Of a stretch of 37,401 nucleotides of DNA, positions 3,318 through 25,453 are shown piece by piece; the first letter of the stretch is position 1, and every line of letters begins with the position of its first letter. Under the pieces are notes generated by a model. The model did not search any database. It saw only the letters and a list, made by a program, of their open reading frames with translations, and had not been told where the DNA came from. Made by a program: the position numbers and the translations under genes. The DNA is taken from the IMG/VR virus record IMGVR_UViG_3300017909_005256, positions 1 to 37,401 of that record. One strand, 5' to 3'. The stretch comes from a virus (taxonomy: Duplodnaviria; Caudoviricetes).

Positions 3318-3538
3318 AAATAGAAATTTATAGTATACCAAATTGTCCTTATTGTGTGAAAGCAAAAGCATTAGCAGATGCAAAAGGACACGAAGTAGAA
3401 TACAAGATGATGGGGGAAGACTTTGATATAGCGTATGTCAGAGAACACTTCCCAGAGGCTAGAACTTTTCCACAAATTTTAGTGGATGGAAAGAAGATTG
3501 GAGGATACGTTAACTTACAGGAACTTTTAGATGGTTAA
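3314..3538 (+). CDS. grx: glutaredoxin
   Basis: CPYC active site, TFPQI cis-Pro motif, IGGY; likely reductant for the nearby ribonucleotide reductase. Confidence 0.92.
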   Translation: MKIEIYSIPNCPYCVKAKALADAKGHEVEYKMMGEDFDIAYVREHFPEARTFPQILVDGKKIGGYVNLQELLDG

Positions 3539-7519: not shown

Positions 7520-7710
7520 TGGAAACTATAACTATAGACGGAAAAGAATATGAAGTAGAGCATTTGGAAGATAGTCAAAAAGCTATCGTTCAAGCTCTAA
7601 ACTATTGCTCTGTAAAAATTGATGAGACAAAACATCAACTAGCTGCGTTAGAAACAGCGAAGCAGGCATATATTAATGACTTAGGAAATCAACTAAAAGA
7701 GGATAGCTAA
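7516..7710 (+). CDS. small coiled-coil hypothetical protein (resembles DUF6447-type 'ITIDGKEY' proteins)
   Basis: 64 aa; ITIDGKEY N-terminus plus heptad helix; coupled to neighbours by ATGA and TAATG overlaps. Confidence 0.65.
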   Translation: MMETITIDGKEYEVEHLEDSQKAIVQALNYCSVKIDETKHQLAALETAKQAYINDLGNQLKEDS

Positions 7711-8369
7711 TGAAAATATTTATTGGGTATGAAGAAGAATATCCAGAAATGTTTGAGGTATGTAAAGAATCAATACTTCGTTACAATAGTAATCATGAGA
7801 TAATACCTCTAAGAAAATCTAAGTTAGAAAACGATGGGGTTTACTGGAGAGCATTTCAAGGTGAAAGCACAGATTTTGCTTTTACTCGCTTTCTAGTACC
7901 TTATCTATGTAATTATGAGGGCAATGCCCTATTTTGTGATGGAGACTTTCTTTGGTATTGTGATCCCGAAGAAATTAAAGATTGGGTAGATGATGAAGCA
8001 GTTTCATGCGTTCAACATCCTTGGCTAGTTTTTGAAGAGCATCGCAAAATGAAAGATAAAACAAATAGACCGTATAAACGAAAATATTGGTCTAGTCTTA
8101 TGTATTTTAATAATACAAAATGTAAAACGCTAACAAAAGAAGCAGTTAGTGTACGTAATGCCGCATGGCTACACGAAATGGATTGGGCGGAGTCAGTGGG
8201 TAGTATACCTGCTATATACAACGCTATGATAAACTATTATGACTTTAGTATAAAAGCTAAAGCAGTTCATTTTACTGATGGTGGCCCTTGGCTTGATATT
8301 AACGATAATTTACTATATAGTTCAGAATGGATAAAAATTTACAACAACTTACTGAAAACAAAAATATAA
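7710..8369 (+). CDS. GT-A fold nucleotide-diphospho-sugar glycosyltransferase (CDI-like / GT8-related)
   Basis: KIFIGY, STDFAFTRFLVPYL, DxD motif (FCDGDFL), RKYWSSLMYFN, VHFTDGGPW. Confidence 0.85.
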   Translation: MKIFIGYEEEYPEMFEVCKESILRYNSNHEIIPLRKSKLENDGVYWRAFQGESTDFAFTRFLVPYLCNYEGNALFCDGDFLWYCDPEEIKDWVDDEAVSCVQHPWLVFEEHRKMKDKTNRPYKRKYWSSLMYFNNTKCKTLTKEAVSVRNAAWLHEMDWAESVGSIPAIYNAMINYYDFSIKAKAVHFTDGGPWLDINDNLLYSSEWIKIYNNLLKTKI

Positions 8370-8992
8370 TAATTGTAGGAAATTCAGTAGAGATTCTACG
8401 ATATAAAAAAGGTGACTTTATAGATTCATTTGATACAGTTGTTCGACTAGGAAAAGGAATACCTGAAGATAGAGTGTATGAAAATATTGGTCGAAAATTT
8501 GATATTTGGGTTACTACTTGGTTACGAATAAAAATGAATAAATTTGTGCCTAAGCATACCTATGCTTTATTCAATGAATCAAGATGGAATCTTGACTACC
8601 ATCCACCCAATGAAAGAATACCCGAAGATAGAGAATTTCATAGTATGTTTAGTTTAGAAGAATATCAAGAACTTAGAAAAGAATGTGGAACTAAAGAAGG
8701 GTGGAAAAAAGCTGGAGAAAGACCTTCAAATGGATATGTTGCAATAAAATATTTTTTAAATAAATGTAATTGTAAGAGTATCACTCTAATTGGGTTTGAT
8801 TTTTTCAGTAAGAAGTTGCCCTTCAAAGCAGGGAGTGATTATCCATCAAGTTGGCATATCCCAATGAATACTGCTGAAGGGGCTATTCATGCTCCAAAAG
8901 AAAAAGAGCTAGTGTTAAAACTACATGAAGAAGGAAAGGTAAACTTAATTCAACTATCTAATTTAGATGAAGAATTTTTAAAGTTTACCTAA
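8327..8992 (+). CDS. GT29 sialyltransferase-like protein
   Basis: Sialylmotif-L-like IIIVGNS..L....G.FIDSFDTVVR, sialylmotif-S-like PSNGYVAIKYFLNKCNCKSITLIGFDFF, late His..Glu resembling motif VS. Confidence 0.72.
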   Translation: MDKNLQQLTENKNIIIVGNSVEILRYKKGDFIDSFDTVVRLGKGIPEDRVYENIGRKFDIWVTTWLRIKMNKFVPKHTYALFNESRWNLDYHPPNERIPEDREFHSMFSLEEYQELRKECGTKEGWKKAGERPSNGYVAIKYFLNKCNCKSITLIGFDFFSKKLPFKAGSDYPSSWHIPMNTAEGAIHAPKEKELVLKLHEEGKVNLIQLSNLDEEFLKFT

Positions 8993-9937
8993 CTTAAATC
9001 CTGTATCTAGTAAATTTTTACTTATATATTTCTGTTTTTCAGCTTTCAATAATAAATTTTCATTTATCGCTGCATCTCTAAAATTAACAGGAATACTATC
9101 AATCAAATCTGTATATAAATCCCAAGGAGTTGAGAGCTGAATAGAAGTTCTTAAGTTCTCATATTTAGCTGTCAAATACTGTGTGTCAATTTGTAAAGTC
9201 CATGCTTTTCTTAACATCTTATTATAGTTAAGACAATCTAGCGGGCCTAATGAATCATTTGTTACTAGATCATCTAGCTTACCATCTGCATAGACTGGCA
9301 TTTTTCCATGATTATATGTCATTAACATTTGCATAAATCTATCTGTTTTTGCATGTCTCAGTTGAGTATCTATATAAGGCTCATCTCCATTAACTGATGG
9401 TCGTTTTTCAAAAAATAAATCTTGATTTGGCATATGTTTTAACTTTTTCCAATTAAGTAAAAAGAAATTATCATTATACCTCCATCTTCCATCATTCATT
9501 TTATTGCCTTTAAAATTAATTCCTAAAATATTATAATATCCTTTGTAGTGTGGATGTTTTTCAAATTGATGATTAATAGATAGACTAGATAAAGATTTAA
9601 AAAATTCTTCGGGAGGTAGATTACCACCCTCTAATCTGCCTAAAAATATTCTAGGGCCATTTGCAAATACTATTCTTTTATTTAGTTCTCTTTTATTTTT
9701 CCACCACTCTTTCAAATGCAAAATTGTTTTTGCCTGTGAATGAGCCGTCCAACCTTTCCACGGCACTTGATATATCATTACGTCATTAAAATTATCAAGT
9801 ACCCATTTTACTTCTCTATCTCTCCAATGATCTTCGCTTATATATAAATGAAGTCTAAAGGGGTCAGTTTTATTCAATAGAGAAGCTAGAGTAAACATAC
9901 TCCATACGCGTTTATAATTATGTACTATTTCAACCAT
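8978..9937 (-). CDS. divergent GT8-like (GT-A) protein lacking a clear DxD
   Basis: N-terminal FTLASLLNK..FRLHLY, KRIVFANG where GT8 has KxlYLDxD, YNDNFFLLNWKKLK resembling GT8 YFNSGVLLiNLkkWR. Confidence 0.5.
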   Translation of the reverse strand: MVEIVHNYKRVWSMFTLASLLNKTDPFRLHLYISEDHWRDREVKWVLDNFNDVMIYQVPWKGWTAHSQAKTILHLKEWWKNKRELNKRIVFANGPRIFLGRLEGGNLPPEEFFKSLSSLSINHQFEKHPHYKGYYNILGINFKGNKMNDGRWRYNDNFFLLNWKKLKHMPNQDLFFEKRPSVNGDEPYIDTQLRHAKTDRFMQMLMTYNHGKMPVYADGKLDDLVTNDSLGPLDCLNYNKMLRKAWTLQIDTQYLTAKYENLRTSIQLSTPWDLYTDLIDSIPVNFRDAAINENLLLKAEKQKYISKNLLDTGFKLGKL

Positions 9938-10826
9938 TTATTACCTTATAATCCCAAAAGTTATCAAAATATGCTTGTAACCTTTCTTCTCGATCTTCAT
10001 CAAAATTAAATATTATACCAGAGTTTTTTGCAGATAAAATTCTATAAAGTTTTTTAATGCAATCGCCTCCAGTTATTGCTCCATAAATAGATTCATAAGT
10101 ACCAAGTGCTCTTTGTCTTTCAGATACAGGTTTAGTTATTAATCCTATTTTCTTACCTTTTAGTAAAGCCATAATACCCATTTCACTATTTTGCCCGCAA
10201 GCCATTTGCTTACAGTTCATAAGTAGTTCAAATCCACCTTCTTTTTTATTTAAAACATTTTCTTCACCGTATCTAAGTCTAAATTTTGCAATAAATAAAT
10301 GTGCTGTTATTGGATGAGGTTTTACTACATATCCATCTTTCATATATTGGTCGAATCTACGCCAATTTATACAGTTAGGATTTGATAATAAATTTGTTCC
10401 TGGTGGAAATACTACCTTATCGTAAAATTCTGTGTTCCATTGTAAACTATATTTGTTTTCTAAACAATTTATAATTTTTTCTATTCTCTCTTCATCGATC
10501 TTCATTGAATTATCATTTGCAATATATCGAAGAAGTTTATCATTAATTGGTAAAGAAGGAACTCTAAAGTATATTCCTCTACCAAGAAAATCTGTGTATA
10601 ACCATTTTCTCACTGTTCGAATTTCATTGGTGTTAAACCAAAGATCATACTGTACGTCAGAGTTTCTATACTGATTAGGTAAGATTTCTCTTAATTCTGA
10701 TAACTCATCTAATTGTCCTTTTGGTCTAAAACTAGACCCAGATTTCATAAAATGAGTTGCGACATCTCCCAGTGCTTCATTTATACTAAGTGCTGATAGT
10801 TTTTTAGTTGGTTTCTTTGCTACCAT
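9930..10826 (-). CDS. capsule polysaccharide synthesis KpsC/KpsS-like (GT-B) glycosyltransferase
   Basis: YVVKPHP motif followed by FELL..C....QNSEMGIMALLKGKKI, matching the KxHP...NSxxGxEALLxGKxV pattern of KpsC/KpsS-type transferases. Confidence 0.6.
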   Translation of the reverse strand: MVAKKPTKKLSALSINEALGDVATHFMKSGSSFRPKGQLDELSELREILPNQYRNSDVQYDLWFNTNEIRTVRKWLYTDFLGRGIYFRVPSLPINDKLLRYIANDNSMKIDEERIEKIINCLENKYSLQWNTEFYDKVVFPPGTNLLSNPNCINWRRFDQYMKDGYVVKPHPITAHLFIAKFRLRYGEENVLNKKEGGFELLMNCKQMACGQNSEMGIMALLKGKKIGLITKPVSERQRALGTYESIYGAITGGDCIKKLYRILSAKNSGIIFNFDEDREERLQAYFDNFWDYKVING

Positions 10827-10974
10827 TTCTTAACTCAAAAACTATTTTTTCTATATTTTTTAACCTTTCCTCTGTTTCTCCCAGAGTATCATATATCGCT
10901 GCCATCATACTTTCTAATTTTCCATTTAAGTAATCTGGACTTACATCTTTTTTTGTGCCAAATTCATTTGCCAT
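10804..10974 (-). CDS. small coiled-coil hypothetical protein (56 aa, not in ORF track)
   Basis: Read by hand: MANEFGTKKDVSPDYLNGKLESMMAAIYDTLGETEERLKNIEKIVFELRNGSKETN; starts 2 nt after the giant ORF's stop and overlaps the next gene, exactly filling the gap. Confidence 0.7.
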   Translation of the reverse strand: MANEFGTKKDVSPDYLNGKLESMMAAIYDTLGETEERLKNIEKIVFELRNGSKETN

Positions 10975-10976
10975 TT

Positions 10977-13900
10977 TTAGTTTGTTTCACTCCATTGTGA
11001 GCCATCCCAGTAGGAGAATCCAAAGTCAGAAGCGCTTGAAACTTCTGTATTGAATAGTGTACCTGCAGAGCTGGCTGTTACTCGTTCAAATATTGTTGTT
11101 TGCGTTGAGAAAGTTGTAGTTGTAAGTGCGCCAGTGGCAACCGTAGTATCAGTTGATTTACTTGTTTCAAAAGTTGTAGTTGTTGTTGTACCTCTTGAAG
11201 AGGAAGTAGATATAGTTGTTTCAAATGTAGTTGTTGTACCAACTGCAGTATCTGTAGTTGTAGTTGTTTCAATTGTTGTGTCTGTGGCTCTTGTAGTTAA
11301 AGTAGCTTGAGAGGTATCTGTATCTTGTGATGTCTCGAATGTAGTTGTTGTACTTTGAGAAGTATCCGTACCTCTACTTGTTTCTGTACCTTGAGATGTT
11401 GCAAATGTAGTTGTTGTAGATTGACTTGTATCTGTTGATCTGCTAGTATCTGTATCTTGAGCTGTTTCAAATATAGTAGTTGTACCTCTATTTGTTTCTG
11501 TAGCTCTAGATGTTGCAACAACAGATGATGTTTCAAATGTGGATACAGTATTAATTGTAGTATCAGTGCTTCTAGTTGTAAGAGTATCAAATACAGTATC
11601 AAATGCTGTAGTTGTAGACTGACTTGTATCTGTGCTTCGAGATGTTTCTGTACCTTGGGATGTTTCAAATGTAGTTACTGTGGCTACAACAGATATTGTA
11701 TTTCTGCTTGTTGCTGTATCATCAGTTGTCTCAAATCCAGTTACTGTACTCTTAGAAGTTGCAGTATCTTGACTTGTTTCTGTAGATTGAGTTGTTTCAA
11801 ATACAGTTGCTGTACTTTGAGTTGTGTCTGTTCCTCTACTTGTGCCTGTATCTTGCGTAGTATTAAATGTTGTAGTTGTGCTTTGTGTAGTATCAGTGCC
11901 TCTAGTTGTTTCTGTGCCTTGTGATGTTTCAAAGGTTGTGCTAGTAGATTGAGTAGTGGCAGTACTTCGAGAGCTTGCTGTCGATTGATCGGTTTCAAAA
12001 GTTGTAGTTGTTGACTGAGTTGTAGCAGTATCTCTCGAAGTAGCTGTTCCTTGTGAGGTATCATATACAGTTGATGTAGATTGTGATGTAGATGTATCTC
12101 TAGAACTTGATGTAGACTGATCTGTTTCAAATGTTGTAGTTGTATTTTCTGTTGTATCAGTTGATCTAGTTGTTTCTGTACCCTGTGATGTTTCAAATGT
12201 AGTTACAGTAGCTACAACAGATATAGTATTTCTGCTTGTTTCTGTATCAGCACTTGTTTCAAATCCAGTTACTGTATTCCTAGAAGTATCTGTGCCTCTG
12301 CTTGTTTCTGTGCCTTGAGACGTTGCAAATGTTGTAGTTGTACTTTGTGTTGTAGCTGTGCTTCTTGAGCTTCCTGTAGACTGATCTGTTTCAAATGTTG
12401 TAGTTGTACTTTGAGTTGTGTCTGTTCCTCTACTTGTTTCTGTACCCTGTGATGTTTCAAATGTAGTTACAGTAGACTGTGTTGTAGCTGTGTCTCTAGA
12501 GCTTGATGTAGATTGGTCTGTATCAAATATGGTTGTAGTATTTTTTGATGTAGAAGTGTCTCTTGATGTTGCTGTACCTTGGTCTGTTTCATATGTTGTA
12601 ACAGTAGATTTTGATGTTGATGTACTTCTCGAACTTCCAGTAGACTGATCTGTATCAAAAGTTGTTGTTGTAGACTGCGATGTAGAAGTGTCTCTTGATG
12701 TTGCTGTACCTTGGTCTGTTTCATATGTTGTAACAGTAGATTTTGATGTAGTAGTGCCTCTAGAACTGCCAGTAGCCTGGTCTGTGTCAAAAGTAGTAGT
12801 AGTAGATTGGCTAGTGTCTGTACCTCTTGAAGTTTCAGTACCTTGTGATGTCTCAAAGGTAGTGGTTGTACTCTGTGATGTATCAGTACTTCTAGAAGTT
12901 CCAGAAGCTCTACTTGTATCAAATGTCGTAGTTGTGCTTTGTGTTGTGTCTGTTCCTCTACTTGTTTCTGTACCCTGTGATGTTGCGAATACAGTAGTGG
13001 TAGATTTAGATGTAGATGTATCTCTGCTTGAAGCAGTAGATTGATCTGTATCAAAAGTTGTTGTTGTATTTCTTGAAGTTAAAGTTGCTCTTGATGTAGC
13101 AGTACCTTGTGATGTTTCAAATGTAGTTACAGTAGACTGTGTTGTAGCTGTATTTCTTGATGTTGCTGTATCTTGTGTTGTATTAAATACTGTGTCGGTG
13201 CTTTGAGTTGTATCTGTTGTTCTACTTGTTGCTGTGCCTTGATCTGTTTCAAATGTAGTTGTTGTAGATTGACTTGTATCTGTTGATCTACTTGTACCTG
13301 TTGCTTGATTAGTATTAAATGTAGTACTTGTACTTTGTGTTGTGTCTGTTGTCCTACTTGTTGCTGTGCCTTGATCTGTTTCAAATGTAGTAACAGTAGA
13401 TTTTGAAGTTGCTGTACTTCTTGAGCTTCCTGTAGACTGATCTGTATCAAAAGTTGTAGTTGTAGACTGGGATGTATCAGTAGCTCTTGATGTTGCTGTA
13501 CCTTGATCTGTTTCAAATGTAGTTACTGTTGCTTTTGAAGTTGCAGTACTTCTAGAGCTTCCTGTGGACTGATCTGTTTCAAATGTTGTTGTTGTGTCTT
13601 GAGAAGTATCAGTAGCTCTTGAAGTTGCTGTACCCTGTGATGTCTCAAAGGTAGTAGTTGTAGCTTTTGAAGTTGCAGTATCTCTACTTGTACCTGTTGT
13701 TTGAGTTGTATTAAATATTGTAGAAGTAGTTCTACTTGTACCTGTTGCTCTTGAACTTGCTCTAGAAGTAATAAATGCTGTTTCAAATGTTGTTGTTTGT
13801 GAGGTATTTGTACTTTGTGCTGTATTTGTACTAAATGCTGTTGTTGTATTAAATGTTGTAGTTGTACCTGTGTTTGTACTTTGTGTTGTAGTTTCTGTAA

Positions 13901-16900: not shown

Positions 16901-19900
16901 CCTGTAAGAACGTTGTAGTAGTATTAAATGCAGTTGTTGTATTTGTATTTGTTGATTGTGTAGTGCTTGCCGTAAATGTTGTAGTTGTACCAGTATTAAA
17001 TGTAGTTGTAGTTGTAAATGTTGTAGTTGTACCAGTAGTTGTAGATTGAGCTGTACTTGTGCTTTGTGCTGTATTTGTAGACTGCGTTGTGCTAGCATCA
17101 AACGTTGTAGTTGTACCAGTAGTTGTGGATTGAGCTGTATTTGTACTTTGCGCTGTATTAGTTGATTGTGTTGTTCCAGCATCAAATGTAGTTGTAGTGC
17201 CTGTATTTGTGCTTTGTGCTGTACTTGTACTTTGTGCTGTGTTGGTTGATTGTGTTGTTGAGGCATCAAATGTTGTAGTTGTACCTGTGTTTGTACTTTG
17301 CGAAGTATTTGTTGAATCCGAGGTACTGGTATTTGTACCTTGAGATGTACCTGCTGTAAATGTAGTGCTTGTTGCTGTATTTGTTCCTTGTGCTGTACTT
17401 GTTGTTTGTGATGTTGTAGTTGTAAATATTGTAGTTGTAGCAAATGTTGTAGTTCTACTTGTACTAATTACAGTATCAAATGAGGTTGTATATGCTGTTG
17501 TAGTATCAAACTCTGTTGTAGTGTCCCTGTTTGTTTCAAAAGTTGTAGTTGTACTATATGCTGTTGTAGTATTAAATATAGTCGTTGTATTTTTTGATGT
17601 ATTAAATGTAGTAGTTGTTGTATAAGCTGTTGTAGTGCTAAATACGGTTGTTGTATTTTGAGTTGTATTAAATGTTGTTGTAGTTGTATATGCTGTAGTT
17701 GTATTAAATACAGTTGTAGTATTTTGAGTAGTATTAAATGTAGTTGTTGTTGTATAAGCTGTTGTAGTACTAAATACAGTTGTCGTATTTTGAGTTGTTT
17801 CAAAAGTTGTTGTTGTGGTGTATGAAGTTGTAGTGTTAAATACTGTTGTTGTATTTCGTGTAGTATTAAATGTAGTTGTAGTTGTATACGCTGTTGTTGT
17901 ACCAAAAGTCGTAGTCGTATTTCTGCTAGTCTCAAAGGTAGTTGTAGTTGTATACGCTGTAGTGGTTGTAAATACAGTTGTAGTATTTTGAGTAGTATTA
18001 AATGTAGTTGTTGTTGTGTAAGCTGTTGTTGTGCCAAAAGTTGTAGTAGTGCTTTGTGTAGTATTAAATGTTGTTGTAGTGTTAAATGTTGTGGTTGTAT
18101 TAAATGTTGTTGTTGTATTTTGTGTAGTATTAAATGTAGTTGTTGTTGTGTAAGTTGTGGTTGTATTAAATGCAGTAGTTGTATTTTGGGTTGTCTCAAA
18201 TGTTGTAGTAGTAGTAAACTGAGTAGTTGTATTAAATGTAGTTGTAGTAGACTGACTAGTATTAAATGTGGTGGTGGTATTAAATGCAGTTGTAGTTGTA
18301 AATGTAGTAGTTGTATTCTGGGTTGTCTCAAATGTTGTTGTAGTATCGTATGAAGTGGTTGTTGCAAATACTGTTGTTGTACTTTTTGTCGTATTAAATG
18401 TTGTAGTGGTATTAAATGCTGTTGTAGTCGTAAATGTAGTAGTTGTATTCTGAGTTGTTTCAAATGTAGTTGTAGTAGTATATGCAGTTGTAGTTGTAAA
18501 CTGAGTTGTTGTATTTTGTGTAGTATTAAATGTAGTTGTAGTTGTATATGCTGTAGTTGTATTAAATGTAGTAGTTGTATTCTGTGTTGTTTCAAACGTA
18601 GTTGTTGTGGTAAATTGAGTTGTAGTATTAAACACAGTTGTAGTAGACTGACTAGTATTAAATGTGGTTGTAGTTGTATATGCTGTTGTAGTATTAAATG
18701 TAGTTGTAGTATTTTGTGATGTAGCAAATGTTGTAGTTGTGGTAAATTGAGTTGTAGTATTAAATGTAGTAGTTGTACCCTGAGTTGTATTAAATGTAGT
18801 AGTTGTGTTAAATGCAGTTGTAGTTGTAAATGTAGTAGTTGTATTTTGAGTAGTGTTAAATGTTGTAGTTGTGTTAAATTGAGTTGTAGTATCAAAAGTA
18901 GTTATTGTACTCTGAGTTGTATTAAATGTAGTTGTTGTATTAAAAGCTGTAGTTGTTTCAAAAGTAGTTACTGTTGTTTGCCCTGTATTAAACGTAGTTG
19001 TTGTATTAAAGGTTGTTGTTGTTGTAAAGTTTGTAGTTGTATTTTGAGTTGTATTAAATGTAGTTGTAGTTGTAAATGCTGTGGTAGTTGCCACTGATGT
19101 AGTAGTGCTTTGTGTAGTATTAAATGTAGTTGTTGTTGTAAACTGAGTTGTAGTATTAAATACAGTTGTGGTATTTGTATTAGTTTCAAATGTTGTAGTT
19201 GTAGCGAACTCTGTAGTTGTATTAAATGTTGTTGTAGTACTCTGAGTCGTATTAAATGTAGTTGTTGTTGTAAACTGAGTTGTAGTATTAAAGGTTGTAG
19301 TAGTGTCTTGGCTAGTATTAAATGTTGTAGTTGTGTTAAAAGTTGTTGTAGTTGTAAATGTTGTTGTAGTACTTTGAGTTGTATTAAATGTAGTAGTTGT
19401 GTTAAATGCTGTTGTAGTTGTAAACGTTGTAGTTGTATTTTGAGTTGTATTAAATGTTGTAGTAGTATTAAATGCTGTAGTTGTATTAAACGTAGTTGTA
19501 GTTGTTTGTCCTGTATTAAATGTAGTTGTAGTATTAAATGTAGTTGTTGTTGTAAAGTTTGTGGTTGTACCCTGAGTAGTGTTAAAAGTTGTGGTAGTTG
19601 TAAATGCTGTTGTTGTACTAAATACAGTTGTTGTGTTTGTGCTAGTTTCTACAGTTGTTTGTGTAGTGAACTCTGTTGTTGTTGTAAAAGCAGTTTCTAC
19701 AGTTTCAGTTGTATTAAACGTAGTAGTTGTATCAAATGTTGTAGTTGTTTCAAAAGTTGTAACTGTACTCTGAGTTGTATTAAAGGTTGTACTAGTGGTA
19801 AATGTAGTTGTAGTACTAAATGTTGTTGTAGTGTTTTGAGTTGTATTAAATGTTGTTGTTGTGTTAAATGCTGTTGTAGTTGTAAATGTTGTAGTTGTGC

Positions 19901-20303
19901 CTTGAGTTGTATTAAAGGTTGTACTTGTTGTAAAAGTAGTTGTAGTTGTAAACTCAGTTGTGGTACTAAATGCAGTTTCAAAAGCTGTTGTTGTAGCTAT
20001 TGCGGTATCTGTTGCTGCTGCTGTATTGAACGAAGTGTCAGTAGAATATAATGTGGTTGTAGTTGTACTTTGTGTAGTATTAAATGTAGTAGTTGTGGTA
20101 AAAGCTGTTTCTTGTACTCCAGATATAGTTGAGGTAGAAGTGTCGGTATTTCTTGATGTAGTTTCTACGACTGTAAAAGGCCCTGCGAGTGCTCCGCCAT
20201 CGTTTACATATACCTCATTGATTCTTCTAAGAGTTCCGCTATCATTAACCGCCAAATAACTGACTTGTCTAAGCGTACCACTATTATTAACATAAATTGC
20301 CAT
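10977..20303 (-). CDS. giant 3108-aa Thr-rich repeat protein, putative virion fibre; predicted self-complementary beta-hairpin
   Basis: Single 9.3-kb ORF with variable third codon positions; short unique head (YVNNSGTLR-type repeats) and tail (FGFSYWDGSQW); Thr-rich arms with mirrored aromatic vs R/Q/K spacing; lies in the fibre operon. Confidence 0.88.
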   Translation of the reverse strand: MAIYVNNSGTLRQVSYLAVNDSGTLRRINEVYVNDGGALAGPFTVVETTSRNTDTSTSTISGVQETAFTTTTTFNTTQSTTTTTLYSTDTSFNTAAATDTAIATTTAFETAFSTTTEFTTTTTFTTSTTFNTTQGTTTTFTTTTAFNTTTTFNTTQNTTTTFSTTTTFTTSTTFNTTQSTVTTFETTTTFDTTTTFNTTETVETAFTTTTEFTTQTTVETSTNTTTVFSTTTAFTTTTTFNTTQGTTTNFTTTTTFNTTTTFNTGQTTTTTFNTTTAFNTTTTFNTTQNTTTTFTTTTAFNTTTTFNTTQSTTTTFTTTTTFNTTTTFNTSQDTTTTFNTTTQFTTTTTFNTTQSTTTTFNTTTEFATTTTFETNTNTTTVFNTTTQFTTTTTFNTTQSTTTSVATTTAFTTTTTFNTTQNTTTNFTTTTTFNTTTTFNTGQTTVTTFETTTAFNTTTTFNTTQSTITTFDTTTQFNTTTTFNTTQNTTTTFTTTTAFNTTTTFNTTQGTTTTFNTTTQFTTTTTFATSQNTTTTFNTTTAYTTTTTFNTSQSTTTVFNTTTQFTTTTTFETTQNTTTTFNTTTAYTTTTTFNTTQNTTTQFTTTTAYTTTTTFETTQNTTTTFTTTTAFNTTTTFNTTKSTTTVFATTTSYDTTTTFETTQNTTTTFTTTTAFNTTTTFNTSQSTTTTFNTTTQFTTTTTFETTQNTTTAFNTTTTYTTTTTFNTTQNTTTTFNTTTTFNTTTTFNTTQSTTTTFGTTTAYTTTTTFNTTQNTTTVFTTTTAYTTTTTFETSRNTTTTFGTTTAYTTTTTFNTTRNTTTVFNTTTSYTTTTTFETTQNTTTVFSTTTAYTTTTTFNTTQNTTTVFNTTTAYTTTTTFNTTQNTTTVFSTTTAYTTTTTFNTSKNTTTIFNTTTAYSTTTTFETNRDTTTEFDTTTAYTTSFDTVISTSRTTTFATTTIFTTTTSQTTSTAQGTNTATSTTFTAGTSQGTNTSTSDSTNTSQSTNTGTTTTFDASTTQSTNTAQSTSTAQSTNTGTTTTFDAGTTQSTNTAQSTNTAQSTTTGTTTTFDASTTQSTNTAQSTSTAQSTTTGTTTTFTTTTTFNTGTTTTFTASTTQSTNTNTTTAFNTTTTFLQATDTTFIESTAQSTNTNTTTAFNTTTTFLQATDTTFIESTAQSTNTGTTTTFATTTTFLQATDTTFVASTAQSTNTGTSTTFATTTTFLQATDTTFIESTAQSTNTGTTTTFTTTTSFTNNTNTGTTTAYTTAFTNNTNTGTTTTFATTTTFNEATDTTFNENTTQSTNTATTTTFTTNTNYNTGTTTTFTTTTTFNQVTNTTFVASTTQGTNTSTSTNTSQATNTATNTTFVASTTQGTNTSTSTNTSQATNTATNTTFTAGTSQGTNTSTSTNTSQATNTSTSTNTARGTSRATNTSTSTNTSQGTSRGTNTSTSTNTARGTSRGTNTSTSTNTSFNESTTQGTNTVTATFFNTSRGTNTSTSTNTSFNENTTQGTNTSTSTNTSRNTTVQTETEFNRTTSFTNNTNTGTTTVYFTNTSFFCPEFGTTIQQPEQTSRGTNTSTSTNTSRNTIAERDTVFVRNTTFTNNTNTGTNTTFVASTSQTNNTNTGTTTTYLTSRATNTATNTTFVASTSQTNNTNTGTTTTYTTAFTNNTNTGTTTTYTTAFANNTNTGTTTTYTTAFTNNTNTNTTTSFTNNTNTGTTTTFNESTTQSTNTNTTTSFTNNTNTGTNTTFNENTTQSTNTSTTTSFTNNTNTGTNTTFNENTTQSTNTSTAQSTNTAQGTNTVSSRGTNTSQGTNTATNTTFVASTTQSTNTSTAQSTATAQGTNTSTSTNTSQGTSRGTNTSTSTNTSQATNTAQGTNTSTTTTFDAATTQSTNTSTAQSTATAQGTNTSTTTTFNESTTQGTNTSTAQSTATAQGTNTSTTTTFDAATTQSTNTSTSQTTGTSQSTNTSTTTTFDASTTQGTNTSTSQTTGTSQSTNTATSTTFNESTTQGTNTSTSQGTNTAQGTNTNTTSTFDTTTTFDTDTSFIESTAQGTNTNTTSTFATTTAFETDTTFIESTAQATNTTTSTVFDTTTTFATDTTFIESTAQGTNTTTSTTFTTTTVYNTGTTTTFTETTTQSTNTGTTTTFNTTTAFSTNTAQSTNTSQTTTFETAFITSRASSRATGTSRTTSTIFNTTQTTGTSRDTATSKATTTTFETSQGTATSRATDTSQDTTTTFETDQSTGSSRSTATSKATVTTFETDQGTATSRATDTSQSTTTTFDTDQSTGSSRSTATSKSTVTTFETDQGTATSRTTDTTQSTSTTFNTNQATGTSRSTDTSQSTTTTFETDQGTATSRTTDTTQSTDTVFNTTQDTATSRNTATTQSTVTTFETSQGTATSRATLTSRNTTTTFDTDQSTASSRDTSTSKSTTTVFATSQGTETSRGTDTTQSTTTTFDTSRASGTSRSTDTSQSTTTTFETSQGTETSRGTDTSQSTTTTFDTDQATGSSRGTTTSKSTVTTYETDQGTATSRDTSTSQSTTTTFDTDQSTGSSRSTSTSKSTVTTYETDQGTATSRDTSTSKNTTTIFDTDQSTSSSRDTATTQSTVTTFETSQGTETSRGTDTTQSTTTTFETDQSTGSSRSTATTQSTTTTFATSQGTETSRGTDTSRNTVTGFETSADTETSRNTISVVATVTTFETSQGTETTRSTDTTENTTTTFETDQSTSSSRDTSTSQSTSTVYDTSQGTATSRDTATTQSTTTTFETDQSTASSRSTATTQSTSTTFETSQGTETTRGTDTTQSTTTTFNTTQDTGTSRGTDTTQSTATVFETTQSTETSQDTATSKSTVTGFETTDDTATSRNTISVVATVTTFETSQGTETSRSTDTSQSTTTAFDTVFDTLTTRSTDTTINTVSTFETSSVVATSRATETNRGTTTIFETAQDTDTSRSTDTSQSTTTTFATSQGTETSRGTDTSQSTTTTFETSQDTDTSQATLTTRATDTTIETTTTTDTAVGTTTTFETTISTSSSRGTTTTTTFETSKSTDTTVATGALTTTTFSTQTTIFERVTASSAGTLFNTEVSSASDFGFSYWDGSQWSETN
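11150..13740 (-). repeat. 22-aa (66-bp) degenerate repeats of the C-terminal arm, consensus about TTTTFETxQxTxTSRxTxTx(Q/K)S
   Basis: Repeated units such as TTTTFETDQSTGSSRSTATSKA; boundaries approximate. Confidence 0.85.
17500..20100 (-). repeat. 22-aa (66-bp) degenerate repeats of the N-terminal arm, consensus about TTTTFNTTQNTTTTFNTTTx(F/Y)T
   Basis: Repeated units such as TTTTFNTTQSTTTTFNTTTQFT; boundaries approximate. Confidence 0.85.
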
Positions 20304-20326
20304 CTACTACTACTTTTTTATACTAC

Positions 20327-20548
20327 TTAGCTTGAGTATACAAACCAGATATGACCGTCACTTGTACCAGTCGTATCAGTCGGGGCAGTTGTTGTTATTG
20401 TAAAAGGTAATCTACCACTATCAATAGTACCAGATCCAATTTTATCTGAAGCAACTGACCCTTCAAAGTTTCTGGTTGCATCAATAACGTCCGAGCCGTC
20501 AATCTTTAAACCAGAATCTTCGATATTAAAATCTAACTTTTGTCCCAT
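20327..20548 (-). CDS. small tail-fibre-associated protein
   Basis: 73 aa ending TITTTAPTDTTGTSDGHIWFVYSS, a 'ApS...dGdiW' segment typical of phage fibre modules; lies between two fibre-like genes. Confidence 0.65.
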   Translation of the reverse strand: MGQKLDFNIEDSGLKIDGSDVIDATRNFEGSVASDKIGSGTIDSGRLPFTITTTAPTDTTGTSDGHIWFVYSS

Positions 20549-20550
20549 TT

Positions 20551-23241
20551 CTATACCTCTAATGTAGTTCTTATAAACTTGTACGCCATAGTGTCTGTAC
20601 TTGCTGGCGTTACTCTTAATCTTACATTACCACTATCTATATCTGCGTCAAAAGTCGCTTGCGCTCCATTATCAAATATAGATGCGTACTGTGTTAAATA
20701 AACTGTTGATCCATCATGAAACAAAAATATTTCTATTGAATGATAATCTCCATCTGTGGAGTTTACAATTTGAACTATATATTTTGCTGTTCTAAATGTT
20801 GTTGCACTATATGAATCAAGTGTAAATTGTGCTGTTGATGAAGAACTTCCTGTACCTACATCAAATCCAGCAACTTCATCTATATGAAGTTTTTGTGGCG
20901 GTGCTGAATCTTGAATACCTAGTAAACCTGCAACATTTACTTCATCGGAAGTACCATCACCTAAGTCTATATTTCCAGAGAATGTAACATCCCCACTAAA
21001 TGTTTGTCCGCTTAATGCACCACTTGCTAATTCACTTGTTCCAATGCTGTTTGCTGCTATTTCTGAACTGCCTACTGCATTTGCTTGAATTTTTGCCGCT
21101 GTAACTGAGTTACCTGCTAGTTGATTAGTATTAATTAAACCATCTGTAATATATGCGGCACTATCAATAGCGTTATCAGCTATTTTAGCGCTAGTTACAG
21201 AATCAGAAGCTAAATGTATAGCATCTATTGATCCTGATACTAACTCTGCAGAGTCTACTGAGTTTTGAGCTATTTGAGTACTACCAACTGCGTTACCTGC
21301 TATTTCTGAAGAGCCTATTGCATTTGCGGATATTTCTGAACTACCTACAGCATTTCCTGCTATCTTGGTTGCTACTACTGAATTTGCTGCTAAATGTATA
21401 GCATCTATTGATCCTGATACTAACTCTGCAGAGTCTACTGAGTTTTGAGCTATTTGAGTTGAGCCCACAGCATTACCAGCTATTTCTGAAGAACCGACAA
21501 CATTTTCCGCTATTTTAGCTGCTGTTATAGAATTGTCTGATAAATGAATAGTATCTATTGATCCTGATACTAACTCTGCAGAGTCAACGCTATTAGCAGC
21601 TATCTCTGCACTACCAACAGCGTTTCCTGCAATATGTCTTGCAACTACTGCGTTACTTGCTAGTTTAGTAGCATCTATTGAGTTATCAGCTATTTTTGCT
21701 GTAGTGATAGTGTTATCGGCAATATCAGCTGCAACAATAGTTCCATTTACTATTTTTGCTGAAGTAACAGAATTATCTGCTATTGCTGATGCAGTACCTG
21801 TTAAATTACCTGTAATGTCGCCTTCTATATCTGCTACAAGAACTGCTTTTTCATAACTAGCTGCTTCTGTATTTACTGTGGAAGTTGGTTGTGTTGTTAA
21901 GTTTTTAAATAATTTAAACTTTCCACTATCTGATGCATCTCTGAATAATCCTGTATATTCGTCTTGAGAGCCACTATCATCGTAGACTCCATAAAATCCA
22001 ATATCAATTGCATCGCTTGATGTATTGTTGTTTGCTAGTTCAAGTAATGAATCATTCATTGTAATAGTCGTTGCCGAAGCAATAAAACTAGAACCAGAGA
22101 CTGTTACATCTCCTGAGAATGTTACATTACCTGTAAATGTTTGTCCTGAAAGAGCGCCACTTGCCAGCTCACTTGAGCCAACAGCGTTTTCAGCTAGCTC
22201 TGCACTATCAACAGCATTTCCAGCTATTTCAGCTGATCCTACAGCATTGCCAGCTATTTCAGCTGCTCCTACGGCATTGCCAGCTATTTCCGCTGATCCT
22301 ACAGCATTTGCTGCTATAGTTTCTGCTATTACTGAATTACTCGCTAATTTTGCATTTGTAACTGCATTATCTTGTATTTTTGCGGTTATGACTGAATCAG
22401 AAGCTAAATGTATAGCATCTATACTGCCTGTAACTAATTCGCTGGAATCTACTGAATTTTCAGCAAGTTCTGAACTACCTACTGCATTTGCAGCTATATC
22501 TCCTGCTACAACAGCATTTCCTGCTATTTTTCCTGAAGTTACTGAATTATCTGCAAGATGAATAGTATCTATACTACCTGTAACTAATTCACTACTATCA
22601 ACCGAATTTTCAGCAAGTTCTGAACTACCTACTGCATTTGCCGCTAGTTGTGTTGAAGTAACAGCGTTTCCTGCTATTTCTGCACTATCAACAGCATTAG
22701 CAGCTATTTTAGCTGATGTAACTTGATTGTCTGATATTGTGATAGCTCCATCAGCGATTTGAACTCCTGTAACTGCATTTGCAGCTATCTCTGAACTGTC
22801 TACTGAGTTTGCTGATATTTCTGCACTTCCAACAGCATTTCCAGCTATCTGTGTAGAAGTAACAGCGTTTCCTGCTATTTCTGAACTATCTACTGAATTT
22901 TCCGCTAGTGAACTTGAAGTAACTGAGTTTGTTGCAAGTTTTGCTGATGTTACTGCTGCTGAGTCTAACTCTGAAGTGCCTACTGCACCTGCTGCGATTT
23001 CTGCGCTACCTACCGCGTTTGCTGCTATAGCTGCTGAATCAATAGAATTATCTCCAACTGAAGTAACCGCTGTACCTTGTAACTGTGCTGATCCTACAGC
23101 ATTTGTTGCTATTTCTGATGATGTAACAGAGTTTTCTGCTAGTTCCGCACTATCAATTGCATTATTAGCAACTTTTGCCGCTGTTACTGCGTTTTCACCT
23201 AAAGCAACATCTTGTACTAAAATTTTTCCAATTAATGGCAT
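20551..23241 (-). CDS. tail fibre / virion structural protein with decapeptide repeats
   Basis: Dozens of (A/G)xN(A/S)V(G/T/D)SxE(I/L) 10-aa repeats interrupted by a globular insert (DSLLELANNN..DIGFYG) and ending in a beta domain (FRTAKYIVQI...GNVRLRVTP) of a kind seen in aquatic phage structural proteins. Confidence 0.75.
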   Translation of the reverse strand: MPLIGKILVQDVALGENAVTAAKVANNAIDSAELAENSVTSSEIATNAVGSAQLQGTAVTSVGDNSIDSAAIAANAVGSAEIAAGAVGTSELDSAAVTSAKLATNSVTSSSLAENSVDSSEIAGNAVTSTQIAGNAVGSAEISANSVDSSEIAANAVTGVQIADGAITISDNQVTSAKIAANAVDSAEIAGNAVTSTQLAANAVGSSELAENSVDSSELVTGSIDTIHLADNSVTSGKIAGNAVVAGDIAANAVGSSELAENSVDSSELVTGSIDAIHLASDSVITAKIQDNAVTNAKLASNSVIAETIAANAVGSAEIAGNAVGAAEIAGNAVGSAEIAGNAVDSAELAENAVGSSELASGALSGQTFTGNVTFSGDVTVSGSSFIASATTITMNDSLLELANNNTSSDAIDIGFYGVYDDSGSQDEYTGLFRDASDSGKFKLFKNLTTQPTSTVNTEAASYEKAVLVADIEGDITGNLTGTASAIADNSVTSAKIVNGTIVAADIADNTITTAKIADNSIDATKLASNAVVARHIAGNAVGSAEIAANSVDSAELVSGSIDTIHLSDNSITAAKIAENVVGSSEIAGNAVGSTQIAQNSVDSAELVSGSIDAIHLAANSVVATKIAGNAVGSSEISANAIGSSEIAGNAVGSTQIAQNSVDSAELVSGSIDAIHLASDSVTSAKIADNAIDSAAYITDGLINTNQLAGNSVTAAKIQANAVGSSEIAANSIGTSELASGALSGQTFSGDVTFSGNIDLGDGTSDEVNVAGLLGIQDSAPPQKLHIDEVAGFDVGTGSSSSTAQFTLDSYSATTFRTAKYIVQIVNSTDGDYHSIEIFLFHDGSTVYLTQYASIFDNGAQATFDADIDSGNVRLRVTPASTDTMAYKFIRTTLEV
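21209..21459. repeat. 71-bp identical direct repeat (21209-21279 and 21389-21459)
   Basis: gctaaatgtatagcatctattgatcctgatactaactctgcagagtctactgagttttgagctatttgagt occurs twice, 180 bp apart, with a partial third copy near 21550. Confidence 0.85.
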
Positions 23242-23242
23242 A

Positions 23243-23575
23243 TTATGTTTGCTCCAAATAACTTAGTACTACATCTACAGTGCTGGCTATATTTGATTGA
23301 ACTTTAATTGCGTCTCCTGCCTCAAGTACTACTTTAGCATCTCCACCGACTGGTGCTAGGGTTGATTGACCTGGAATTTCTCCACTTGCTAATATATTTA
23401 CATCGGTGCTAGTGCTACTGTCTGTAAAAATAACATTCGCTTCTATAGCACCTGTAGTCGTATTACATAGATATAATCCGATTATAGTTGAAGTTGTAGA
23501 GGCAGGACATGTATAAACAGTTGTTTCAACTGTTCCTACATTATTTGCGACTACTGATTTAAATGTTGATGCCAT
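23243..23575 (-). CDS. small beta-rich virion structural protein (fibre/spike adaptor-like)
   Basis: MASTFK..., TVYTCPA, KVVLEAGDAIKVQS, DVVLSYLE pattern; follows an 'AIALG'-ending gene, a pairing I recognise from aquatic phages. Confidence 0.65.
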   Translation of the reverse strand: MASTFKSVVANNVGTVETTVYTCPASTTSTIIGLYLCNTTTGAIEANVIFTDSSTSTDVNILASGEIPGQSTLAPVGGDAKVVLEAGDAIKVQSNIASTVDVVLSYLEQT

Positions 23576-23578
23576 GTG

Positions 23579-23869
23579 TTATCCCAATGCTATTGCAAAA
23601 GCAAGTATATCTGCTTCAGTTGCAAATCGTCCTTCTACGTTTGCAGGAGTAAATGTAAATACACCAGCATTGTCGTATGTTAAACTACCATTTCCACTTG
23701 CTGTTGCAGTCGTTACACTAAAATCTGTTAATGCAGCAGAATCACCTGAGGGAATTGCTGATGATATTGTAAGTGTAGTCGTATTGCTCGTGGCTGTAAT
23801 TGTCGTAGTATTAGGAGTAATAGTTAATTTATTATTATCACTAGGAGTAATAATTAATTTGGTAGCCAT
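23579..23869 (-). CDS. small fibre-associated protein ending in AFAIALG
   Basis: 96 aa; GNGSLTYDNAGVFTFTP fibre-type segment; TAATG coupling to the upstream gene. Confidence 0.6.
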   Translation of the reverse strand: MATKLIITPSDNNKLTITPNTTTITATSNTTTLTISSAIPSGDSAALTDFSVTTATASGNGSLTYDNAGVFTFTPANVEGRFATEADILAFAIALG

Positions 23870-24207
23870 TATCGTGTAACTTCTTGTGTGACTCTTGCAA
23901 CGCCTTGAATTAGTCTAGTAACAGTATTTGCACTTGTATTTACTAGCTCTAAATCGTAAAAATATTTTCCTGCAGTTACGTTTGTAGTTGTACCGTGACC
24001 CAATTCCATTTTTAAAATGCCATTTGCAGAGTCAGTTATAGTACAAGTAAAATCTGCTGTTTTTGTGTCTGAATTAAGAGTTGGGCGCAGTTGTGCTCGT
24101 GCTGAATGTGTACTTAAATTCACATTTGCACCATCTTGTTCTACTTGAATTTGTATTGAAAAAGTCGATCCCTGATCGATTACGATATCATACGTTCCTG
24201 CCGCCAT
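23869..24207 (-). CDS. T5 p132/LtfC-like collar protein (Ig/BppU-like fold) anchoring lateral fibres
   Basis: DIVIDQG, VNLSTHSARAQLR, DFTCTITDSANGILKMEL, YFYDLEL and RLIQGVARVTQEVTR match the recalled p132/BppU-N pattern; AGGAG RBS at 24215-24219. Confidence 0.7.
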   Translation of the reverse strand: MAAGTYDIVIDQGSTFSIQIQVEQDGANVNLSTHSARAQLRPTLNSDTKTADFTCTITDSANGILKMELGHGTTTNVTAGKYFYDLELVNTSANTVTRLIQGVARVTQEVTR

Positions 24208-24227
24208 TTTTATACTCCTATACGCTA

Positions 24228-24256
24228 ATTATATCAAAAACTTGAGGGTTTGTCAA
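24228..24256 (-). promoter_or_regulatory. consensus sigma70 promoter driving the fibre/glycosylation operon
   Basis: Minus strand reads AAAAATAATTC-TTGACA(24256-24251)-17 nt-TATAAT(24233-24228), followed by AGGAG and ATG 24207; sits in the largest intergenic gap of the window. Confidence 0.9.
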
Positions 24257-24285
24257 GAATTATTTTTGAGGGGTGTTCTTTCAAC

Positions 24286-24474
24286 CTATGAACTTGGGTA
24301 TTTGTCTTTAACTGCTTTTCTATCAAGATAAAAATTTCCTGTTTTTGCTGTATCCCCAAACTTACCACTATCAATATCATGATATAAAAGATCGAGTTGC
24401 TCTACTATTGCTGGATAATATCCTTTTCTTTTTGTATCATATGTTGATCCTGATTTTGTTAAACTTATATTCAC
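24286..24474 (-). CDS. small hypothetical protein (possible fibre assembly chaperone)
   Basis: 62 aa, GTG start overlapping the upstream TGA; KR..YP.I.EQLDLLYHDI...KAVKDKYP motif common in phage tail regions. Confidence 0.65.
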   Translation of the reverse strand: MNISLTKSGSTYDTKRKGYYPAIVEQLDLLYHDIDSGKFGDTAKTGNFYLDRKAVKDKYPSS

Positions 24475-24893
24475 TCTCCATACCTCTTTACATTAATATA
24501 TTCTGGGGAATGATATTTATACCCCAATTTACTAAATTGTATTTTATATTTTCCTGGTTCATCGCAGGAAAAACTTAAACTCGTACTATTCATAGTACCT
24601 TTTGATACATTATCAACAAAGACCTCTGTTCCAGAAGGTAATCCTGTAATTGTAACAGTATCATCTATTGCTGGAGTTTTTGAACTGAATGAAGGTGCAA
24701 ACGTAGTCATTTCTTCTATGTCTGTTCCTCCACTATTTACCCAGTAAATATCTGGACTTGGTGCGTTGTCTGTATCTTTACTTAAATAACTCAAACCTTC
24801 ATTTGCTTGTTCTGTAATTACATTTGAATCTATATTACTTGTTGTAGACCAAACAATTTTTTTGTCTGAATTATAAAAAATATGCCATGTCAT
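24471..24893 (-). CDS. hypothetical tail-associated protein
   Basis: 140 aa, ATGA coupled; C-terminal Ig-like pattern (ITGLPSGTEVFVD...PGKYKIQF). Confidence 0.6.
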   Translation of the reverse strand: MTWHIFYNSDKKIVWSTTSNIDSNVITEQANEGLSYLSKDTDNAPSPDIYWVNSGGTDIEEMTTFAPSFSSKTPAIDDTVTITGLPSGTEVFVDNVSKGTMNSTSLSFSCDEPGKYKIQFSKLGYKYHSPEYINVKRYGE

Positions 24894-25453
24894 AAACTTC
24901 TCCCATCTAAAAAATTTTCTGCTTTAAAAATTACCCATGAAACTGCTACTGCTTGTGAATTCGCATCATTGTTAGTTGGATTCGATGCGTTAAACTCAAA
25001 AAATACTGCATTTTGTATTTTTATATTTGTATTTGTAGTTTCTATAAATGCTCTAACACCTGCATTTGATTGAAACTCTTCATCATCTTCTTCCTCTTCT
25101 TCGGCTGGTATAACTTCTTGAAACCCATATGCTACGGGATTAAAAACTTGAGTTGCAATTCCGTTTGAATCTAAATCACTTACTCTACACCATCTAACTG
25201 CATACGCTGGATCATATCCTAATCCATGTGTTATTGTATGAGTATTAGCAGTATAAGTAGTGTTTGCATAAGTTACATTTGTATGCCGACTTGCTAAAAT
25301 AGTTTGTCCGTATGCTTCTACAATTAAACTTTCTCCTGCTCTTGAATCAAAGGCAAGTGGATTTGTAGTAGTTAATACATCATCTCCTGATTGAGATACA
25401 TACAATCCCTCTCCTCCAGTTGCTCTATTTCCTAGTAATACTCTATTTGCCAT
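24890..25453 (-). CDS. tail-tip associated protein, MANRVLLG paralog 3
   Basis: N-terminus MANRVLLG..GLYVSQSGDDVLT...LAFDS; HTITHGLGYDP motif; acidic loop. Confidence 0.7.
   Translation of the reverse strand: MANRVLLGNRATGGEGLYVSQSGDDVLTTTNPLAFDSRAGESLIVEAYGQTILASRHTNVTYANTTYTANTHTITHGLGYDPAYAVRWCRVSDLDSNGIATQVFNPVAYGFQEVIPAEEEEEDDEEFQSNAGVRAFIETTNTNIKIQNAVFFEFNASNPTNNDANSQAVAVSWVIFKAENFLDGRSL

Follow-up and report, generated by a model that had tools for sequence, protein, structure and literature searches.

The window studied here (IMG/VR virus record IMGVR_UViG_3300017909_005256, positions 1 to 37,401) comes from seawater metagenomes and covers 37.4 kb of a tailed phage genome, with a CheckV completeness of 38%. 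Its plus strand carries genes for SbcCD, a resolvase, an exonuclease and nrdAB, and its minus strand those for the tape measure, the tail tip and the fibres, a block layout which we take to be T5-like. At the junction of the two blocks lies the subject of this work, a giant threonine-rich gene (10977..20303, minus strand) with a cassette of glycosyltransferase (GT) genes. After the Thr gene, on the same strand, follow the genes for a 56-aa coiled-coil-like protein (10804..10974), a 298-aa protein with a KpsC/WbbB fold (9930..10826) and a 319-aa protein with a GT8-type GT-A fold (8978..9937). A 219-aa GT8-like GT-A protein with a DxD motif (7710..8369) and a 221-aa GT29 (sialyltransferase-family) protein (8327..8992) are encoded on the plus strand. 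A preliminary description of the locus had proposed that these enzymes glycosylate the Thr-rich protein as a long filament of the virion. Every open reading frame (ORF) that it named was found at its coordinates, and the two plus-strand genes do converge on a minus-strand operon, the GT29 gene overlapping the end of 8978-9937 by 15 nt. This operon is as tightly packed as had been said, namely nine genes from 24207 to 8978 with spacings of -23 to +23 nt.

The giant Thr/Ser-rich ORF is real and encodes 3,108 aa (46% Thr, 11% Ser and 8% Asn). Nevertheless, the many N-x-S/T sequons that had been pointed out are explained by composition, as the 164 found compare with 142 +/- 8 in shuffled sequences. 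With a count so near to composition, only one extended D/E-x-N-x-S/T sequon and no oligosaccharyltransferase or N-glycosyltransferase-like gene among the window ORFs, we rejected N-glycosylation at the sequons.

Regarding the architecture of the protein, the periods of its tandem repeats mirror each other around position 15,600 (66, 90 and 84 nt on one side and 84, 90 and 66 nt on the other). When residue i is paired with residue S-i, their mutual information has a single peak at i+j = 3123 (1-based); there it reaches 0.80 bits over the 1,512 pairs, and none of 20 block-shuffled controls exceeds 0.36 bits. Both arms alternate strictly by two residues, one face being made of T/F/Q/R/Y (62-64% Thr) and the other of T/S/N/A/D/G, and the parity of the faces switches at the turn. 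Aromatic residues stand opposite Gln or Arg in 139 of 159 cases in the N-terminal arm (background 9%) and in 69 of 80 cases in the C-terminal arm (background 6%). At the mirror centre, near residue 1561, lies a segment without repeats, the putative hairpin turn (residues ~1550-1575; 15579..15656, minus strand), where close relatives have a short, mostly acidic turn. The mirror register is kept in every one of the 46 complete relatives that are distinct (lengths 668-1,621 aa, median ~950), the best register being the length plus 11 to 16; this near-constant offset implies that insertions come in mirrored pairs. In a second group of Thr proteins most of the long members keep the register as well, and the short members and the Lullwater-type group give a weak signal or none. 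The window copy is the longest among the sequences compared, around three times the median relative.

From these patterns we infer that the Thr protein is a fold-back antiparallel two-stranded beta-ribbon of ~1,510 residue pairs, with both termini at the base. The rise of a beta-strand is 0.33-0.35 nm per residue, which would give a ribbon of at most ~0.5 um. A conserved C-terminal motif (10977..11096, minus strand), 65-73% identical in the 45 loci other than the identical contig L001 and constant in its register offset, would lie back at the base beside the N-terminus. On the mirror register and the strict alternation we rejected a disordered mucin-like chain; what is left of the long filament proposed earlier is the giant Thr-rich protein itself, but as an apparently ordered fold-back ribbon and not as a disordered chain like mucins or serine-rich repeat proteins (SRRPs). 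A misassembly inflated by repeats is judged unlikely because the mirror register is unbroken; moreover, the C-terminal 1,181 aa recur with 100% identity in contig L001, and all 30 bins of the gene are covered by public contigs, none of which spans it whole. Thr proteins have at least three unrelated N-termini and only the Thr-rich body in common. Ice binding by Thr arrays was set aside, since it leaves the coupling to the enzymes described below unexplained.

In relatives the Thr gene comes after a tail fibre gene and the gene of a 73-aa adaptor wherever the contig extends far enough. In the window these are an 896-aa repeat tail fibre (20551..23241, minus strand; phrog_892 tail fibre, E 9e-90) and the adaptor, a predicted trimer (20327..20548, minus strand). 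Three adaptor copies folded together with residues 1-52 of the Thr protein gave a complex score of 0.82, the best of three controls giving 0.02; the mark for this score is reached by 116 of 157 solved pairs and by 2 of 215 mismatched pairs. In the predicted complex, each of the three 14-residue repeats of the N-terminal docking domain (20172..20303, minus strand) pairs with a separate adaptor chain at its C-terminal strands (residues 62-72), the runs agreeing on at least 94% of the contacts and the partner pLDDT being at least 84. The Thr protein is thus modelled on the virion, where it probably hangs on the trimeric tail-fibre adaptor, so that the earlier placement on the virion stands as a structure prediction.

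In cassette-free relatives the equivalent slot is occupied by other fibres and small distal proteins. In such slots (L080:11172-13645; L053:8076-10089; L105:11389-12084) we also noted fusions of a GT25, a PLOD-type GT and a 2-oxoglutarate (2OG) oxygenase, and free 2OG oxygenases. Phage DLP6 has a Thr tract of the same style within its annotated baseplate wedge protein AAY80_265 (L050:1408-5274). Furthermore, a long unannotated fibre-like ORF runs across the DLP6 genome ends (L050 end and L047:1-1655), upstream of the coiled-coil gene, and it ends in what we take to be a Hint-type domain.

The KpsC/KpsS-like label given earlier to 9930-10826 was borne out by structure comparison. Its AlphaFold2 (AF2) model (pLDDT 90) shows the modified GT-B fold of KpsC and WbbB, with a Foldseek match to 6mgd (E 3e-5) and VIA matches to KpsC (6mgb; Z 9.8, rmsd 4.5, 219 aligned) and to WbbB (Z 8.2). 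The best full-length fold matches are transferases of 3-deoxy-D-manno-octulosonate (Kdo), with TagF/TarL ranking lower. Among 122 aligned family members, mostly at 20-35% identity, K125, N145, K169, H171 and P172 are invariant in 122/122 and Y126 is 98% conserved; D61, D124, Y126, G143 and E215 are nearly invariant, the window protein carrying Asn at 124. According to excerpts of PMC12887879 and PMC10148158, (K/R)xHP binds cytidine monophosphate (CMP), KpsC Lys133 and Tyr134 bind Kdo hydroxyls, and in the QxxxD of KpsC-type enzymes Gln binds the carboxylate and Asp is the nucleophile. The (K/R)xHP motif is present in the family as K169, H171 and P172, and the order of the family's motifs agrees with that of KpsC. 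The protein, the likely core transferase, would work like a CMP-ulosonate transferase, yet it falls outside GT99 and GT107. Its uncharacterised phage family comprises 345 clusters at 50% identity and includes proteins of the cultured phages KVP40, Lullwater, Cr30 and DLP6, where they are annotated as hypothetical. The KpsC-fold fusions seen (P0206, P0231) are to a polypeptide GlcNAc-transferase domain of PF11397, in one member, and to an N-terminal coiled-coil-like extension.

Regarding the other three enzymes, the GT8-like label of 8978-9937 holds for the GT8-type GT-A fold (VIA matches to WbbM, Z 15.4, GlyE of S. pneumoniae TIGR4, 15.1, and LgtC, 14.2; Foldseek match to UGGT, E 4e-7) but not for the metal-binding DxD, which in GT8 enzymes is expected after the fourth strand. 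Fold and alignment suggest either a metal-independent GT or a non-catalytic partner. Iterative hidden Markov models built from this protein recruit DLP6 003 (E 1e-36) and not the three Vibrio-phage proteins, and pairwise hhalign of its alignment with DLP6 gene 003 and KVP40.0257 was not significant. The family of 7710-8369 has FCDxD and HFTDGGPW in 18 of 18 members, which we take to be the equivalents of the GT8 DxD and C-terminal His motif. Among the members of its ESM Atlas neighbours at 0.99, 13-14% carry PF01501, and the protein has no Pfam match of its own; the GT8 relationship claimed before is possible. The GT29-like protein 8327-8992 was rightly named, as it passes the PF00777 cut-off (36.8 vs 23 bits). 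Its L and S sialylmotif stretches align with an alpha-2,3-sialyltransferase, and a VS-like motif, His-x3/4-Glu, is present in 18/18. For three of the four enzymes, nothing useful came from searching the PDB by sequence and by profile, and Pfam and NCBIfam were blank. Small genes like that of the 56-aa coiled coil precede the KpsC-fold gene in DLP6, KVP40 and a SAR92 prophage.

In close relatives the coupling of these genes to the Thr gene is tight. A search baited with the KpsC-fold protein found the Thr gene upstream in 46/46 loci (one of them the same phage); the same loci carry the coiled coil and the GT-A gene in 46/46, the GT29 gene in 45 and the GT8-like gene in 44, the misses being at contig ends. 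We also used nrdB as an unbiased bait, taking the best 80 of 594 matches, which gave 45 loci with at least 4.5 kb downstream. The whole cassette was present in 37 of these, 7 had neither a Thr ORF nor any of the five genes, and in the remaining one the contig ended after the coiled coil. The presence of the cassette on the nrdB tree requires at least 4 changes, 2 of them forced by well-supported branches.

Some relatives carry further genes within the cassette. Genes for a radical SAM/SPASM protein and a short-chain dehydrogenase (SDR), possibly a sugar-modifying pair, lie between the GT8-like and GT29 genes (L008:6455-7853, where the Pfam assignment was made, L034:12452-13946 and L059:7869-9321). 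An unclassified protein of ~440 aa is encoded before the GT8-like gene (L118:11138-13212, L060:11141-12460 and L117:8060-9388), accompanied in L118 by a gene of the UDP-glucose/GDP-mannose dehydrogenase family. A Coq4-like gene directly follows the DxD-less GT-A gene (L002:3235-3906, PF05019, with equivalents in L004, L009 and L059).

In distant phages the contexts were sampled for three subfamilies, whose alignments (the first with the best 80 of 133) gave 138 loci; after dropping 14 with less than 1 kb upstream and one weak match, 123 were left. A Thr-rich ORF, defined as at least 30% Thr in an 80-residue window, ends within 1 kb upstream of the KpsC-fold gene in 99 of 123 loci, against 4 of 309 for other genes as background, and in 27 of 35 loci after dereplication at 60%. 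Another 5 have it elsewhere in the locus. The enzymes and the Thr gene travel as a unit, as the preliminary description had asked of relatives. With regard to its refuting case, GTs without the Thr gene, the cassette-free close relatives lack both, some distant loci gave no Thr-rich ORF at this threshold in the stretch examined, and GT8-like homologs occur in phages without a match to the KpsC-fold gene. The coupling holds across siphoviruses, myoviruses and podoviruses, and also where the genes are unlinked. Cultured pairings are KVP40.0254 (T29 S19), 6E35.1a, an unannotated ORF of F86, Lullwater gp41 (T26) and BL199 gp042, and in Cr30 a 116-aa T20/Y19 gene is paired with the KpsC-fold gene. 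The Thr-rich ORF is unannotated in Vibrio phage F86 (L133 ~3100-3650). In DLP6 all four enzymes have homologs, which are encoded at two places apart from each other. A prophage-like region of the SAR92 clade bacterium H921 (L280:2926-7558) carries a 988-aa Thr gene together with the genes of the coiled coil and of the two core enzymes, and was the sole match in a scan of 185,579 genomes; there the Thr module lies between capsid-side genes and head-tail/tail genes, and the bacterium is a possible tractable host system.

The four enzymes, all GT-like as claimed before, are nevertheless unequal: the KpsC-fold protein is the universal partner, the DxD-less GT-A protein a frequent one, and the GT8-like and GT29 proteins are accessory. 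No GT-A partner homolog was found downstream of the KpsC-fold gene in the Lullwater/Cr30 group, and therefore the minimum system is the Thr gene with the KpsC-fold gene. In phages related to this group (L216-L254) a conserved gene of ~165 aa, possibly an adaptor or chaperone, lies between the two. Among 50,697 phage records GT29 matched in DLP6 only, beside its GT8-like gene and in a genome that also has the core. Our preferred reading of the GT8-like and GT29 genes is that they are accessory extenders. When viral contigs were scanned with single proteins, the Lullwater homolog returned Lullwater itself only and the DLP6 homolog returned nothing.

Taking all this together, we suggest that the phage glycosylates the Thr ribbon with its own enzymes, with a probability of roughly 70%. 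The support from outside the window counted for this comprises the PF11397 fusion, the sugar-pathway genes inserted in cassettes and the enzyme homologs missing from 6E351A particles. Glycosylation would take place in the host cytoplasm and be O-linked, on ribbon Thr/Ser or on a first sugar there. The KpsC-fold enzyme would bind a CMP-ulosonate of the host, the simplest candidate being CMP-Kdo, which is produced by Gram-negative hosts for their lipopolysaccharide (LPS); if glycosylation occurs, a CMP-ulosonate is quite likely the donor. As KpsC's Asp nucleophile is missing, the sugar would be transferred in one step by direct attack. A partner or chaperone role may fall to the 56-aa coiled coil and the GT-A protein without DxD, and in the window's lineage the GT8-like and GT29 enzymes may extend and cap the glycan; that all four enzymes act on the same glycan has about an even chance. 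The sugar coat would keep a long two-stranded ribbon soluble, stiff and resistant to proteases. As the tip in the window's clade is only a short turn, contact with hosts or gels is probably made by the glycan-covered shaft. We propose more tentatively that capsule Kdo transferases gave rise to a phage-wide family which attaches Kdo, or a related ulosonic acid, directly to protein Thr, the Thr replacing the lost Asp, thus making a polyanionic whisker of ~0.1-0.5 um. If true, siphoviruses, myoviruses and podoviruses of Gram-negative bacteria would carry a single-chain mirror-paired beta-ribbon of tunable length.

Several points weigh against glycosylation of the ribbon by this cassette. The Asp nucleophile of QxxxD is absent from the 122 members of the 9930-10826 family, which have PG-x-N there and no conserved Asp after it, and no DxD occurs in 113 aligned rows of the 8978-9937 family, where ANG, GGN, DHM, TSG and similar are found. 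The fold scores of 9930-10826 are moderate (TM about 0.4-0.47), and K125, Y126 and N145 were matched to KpsC residues by motif order and spacing, without a residue-level superposition. The cassette genes are adjacent in close relatives, so one deletion could explain their joint loss. No 30%-Thr ORF was found in the stretch examined of 19 of the 123 distant loci, which comprise 5 with milder Thr/Ser-rich ORFs, all 5 of the DLP6-like loci, with long beta-rich fibres, and 9 with the enzyme genes beside terminase genes; among five terminase-side records the Thr gene was found elsewhere in three, including the single near-complete one (at least 90%), and the other two, both incomplete, gave no Thr match. 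Neither plus-strand accessory GT is near the KpsC-fold gene in any of the 138 distant loci, and 7710-8369 homologs occur in phages without a KpsC-fold match (for example Mosig, S-SCSM2R and CcrColossus). The docking job behind the complex score of 0.82 is unlike the calibration set, and its likeness to solved fibre joints may contribute to that score. Non-detection in one proteomics table, namely that of 6E351A discussed next, is weak evidence.

The missing catalytic residues are also what an unlikely alternative builds on, in which the GT-fold proteins are pseudo-enzymes that chaperone the folding of the hairpin, or sugar-binding parts of the virion, and the ribbon stays unmodified. A KpsC-fold protein without the Asp nucleophile and a GT-A protein without DxD agree with it, and a two-stranded ribbon of 1,500 pairs plausibly needs folding help. 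Nevertheless, KxHP, KY and Asn are kept across 20-30% identity, which fits a live nucleotide-sugar site; a GT60 fusion exists; and UDP-glucose dehydrogenase family, SDR and radical SAM genes are inserted in the cassettes of some relatives. Particle proteomics speaks against it as well: according to PMC12028318 (Tables S4 and S8), the KpsC-fold homolog and two neighbours are missing from the 94 proteins found in 6E351A particles, as is expected of enzymes. That particle table is blind to the Thr protein, whose GenBank protein id has 0 matches in the supplement of PMC12028318; in the annotation there, the 6E351A Thr ORF is covered by a 29-aa ORF on the opposite strand and by an extended neighbour, and it is absent from the re-annotation used for the proteomics (L134:3162-3695).

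Modification of the ribbon by another chemistry or donor, either a CDP- or CMP-linked phospho-polyol or phospho-sugar in the manner of TagF or a neutral sugar added first by one of the GT-A enzymes, seems improbable to us. TagF/TarL do appear in the fold lists, E215 is conserved where the KpsC motif differs, and excerpts of PMC12887879 describe the HP motif as common to several CMP-dependent families; however, the best full-length matches are Kdo transferases, and the KpsC-fold enzyme probably acts on protein directly, as the Lullwater/Cr30 group has no GT-A homolog downstream. It is very improbable, finally, that the enzymes target host LPS or capsule, or phage DNA, for superinfection exclusion or restriction escape, and merely hitch-hike beside fibre genes in a variable region. 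KpsC, WbbB, LgtC and WbbM do act on surface glycans, GT8-like homologs occur without the core, and the matching Vibrio-phage region, whose first gene VP6E351A_0314 is the KpsC-fold homolog, is called an anti-defence island in PMC12028318. Against this, the coupling is specific to Thr-rich genes, across three phage morphotypes and between unlinked genes, and the core genes of the window share their packed operon with fibre genes. Such a target would apply mainly to the two plus-strand genes beside nrdB.

Glycosylation of the ribbon, if it occurs, can be compared with several known systems. The retaining beta-Kdo transferases KpsC (GT107), WbbB (GT99) and KrkA (GT140) resemble 9930-10826 in fold and in the (K/R)xHP CMP motif, and KpsC also in a Lys-Tyr pair ~20 residues before an invariant amide residue (excerpts of PMC10148158 and PMC12887879). 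However, 9930-10826 lacks the QxxxD Asp and with it the double displacement as described, and its family, nearly confined to phages, goes with Thr-rich proteins and not with capsule or O-antigen loci. For the mycobacteriophages Che8 and Rita, phage-encoded GTs have been proposed or shown to glycosylate virion proteins (Freeman et al. 2023, PMID 37329881, as cited in PMC11256854). The target there is the major capsid protein, whereas here it would be a dedicated Thr ribbon with a KpsC-like core enzyme, and the known hosts are Gram-negative.

The analogy with streptococcal Ser-rich adhesins, drawn in the preliminary description, keeps its functional side. These are secreted, wall-anchored Ser-repeat proteins with an accessory Sec system, GtfA/GtfB and accessory GTs, and the likeness consists of the gene of a long hydroxyl-rich repeat protein beside several cytoplasmic GTs, a pair of catalytic and noncatalytic proteins being conceivable; GlyE, a fold match of 8978-9937, presumably acts on PsrP. 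It fails in that none of the accessory Sec, wall-anchor or GT4 GtfA/GtfB genes was found among the window ORFs scanned, and in that the protein here is rich in Thr and not Ser, apparently an ordered mirror-paired hairpin, and attached in prediction to a tail-fibre adaptor. With the GT29 sialyltransferases, 8327-8992 shares PF00777 and the L, S and VS-like motifs, but it is phage-encoded, short and without a membrane anchor. GT29 has bacterial and plant members, the latter proposed to transfer Kdo (PMC5811610), and the word 'phage' does not occur in the main text of that paper.

A literature search, with closed-access work and bioRxiv supplements outside it, gave no paper on the core-enzyme family, the Thr ribbon or their pairing. 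The enzyme family and the fibre architecture therefore appear undescribed, although phage virion glycosylation itself is known from mycobacteriophages. It is documented for a few of these, and the system here would be another route, separate and widespread, in phages that infect Gram-negative bacteria. The architecture is unusual as well, with one chain apparently folded back over 1,500 residues and repeats growing in mirrored pairs. If confirmed, this would be a new GT family, possibly with a protein chemistry (Thr-O-Kdo) that is new as well, and a long appendage of a new kind, which would bear on the encounter of marine phages with dilute hosts and with gels.

Regarding the rest of the operon, the perfect sigma70 promoter reported at its head is indeed there. 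This sigma70-type site with extended -10 (24228..24256, minus strand) reads TTGACA-17-TATAAT with the extended TG, 24256-24228, that is 12/12 of the consensus; it lies ~20 nt before the ATG at 24207 and is the sole 12/12 promoter among 28 sites found in 20000-27000. The first gene (23869..24207, minus strand) encodes a 112-aa protein like those of collar or L-shaped tail fibre assembly (phrog_1084, E 9e-27; phrog_3304, E 2e-13). Two small fibre-operon proteins follow, of 96 aa (23579..23869, minus strand) and of 110 aa (23243..23575, minus strand; phrog_1276), both conserved in position in relatives. A 64-aa DUF6447 gene was dropped as a part of the system, since cassette-free relatives (L064, L071) retain it. 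Elsewhere in the window, a cytochrome c-like gene lies among the replication genes (2886-3317), and an IscU/NifU-like gene comes directly after the central tail fibre gene (26401-26793).

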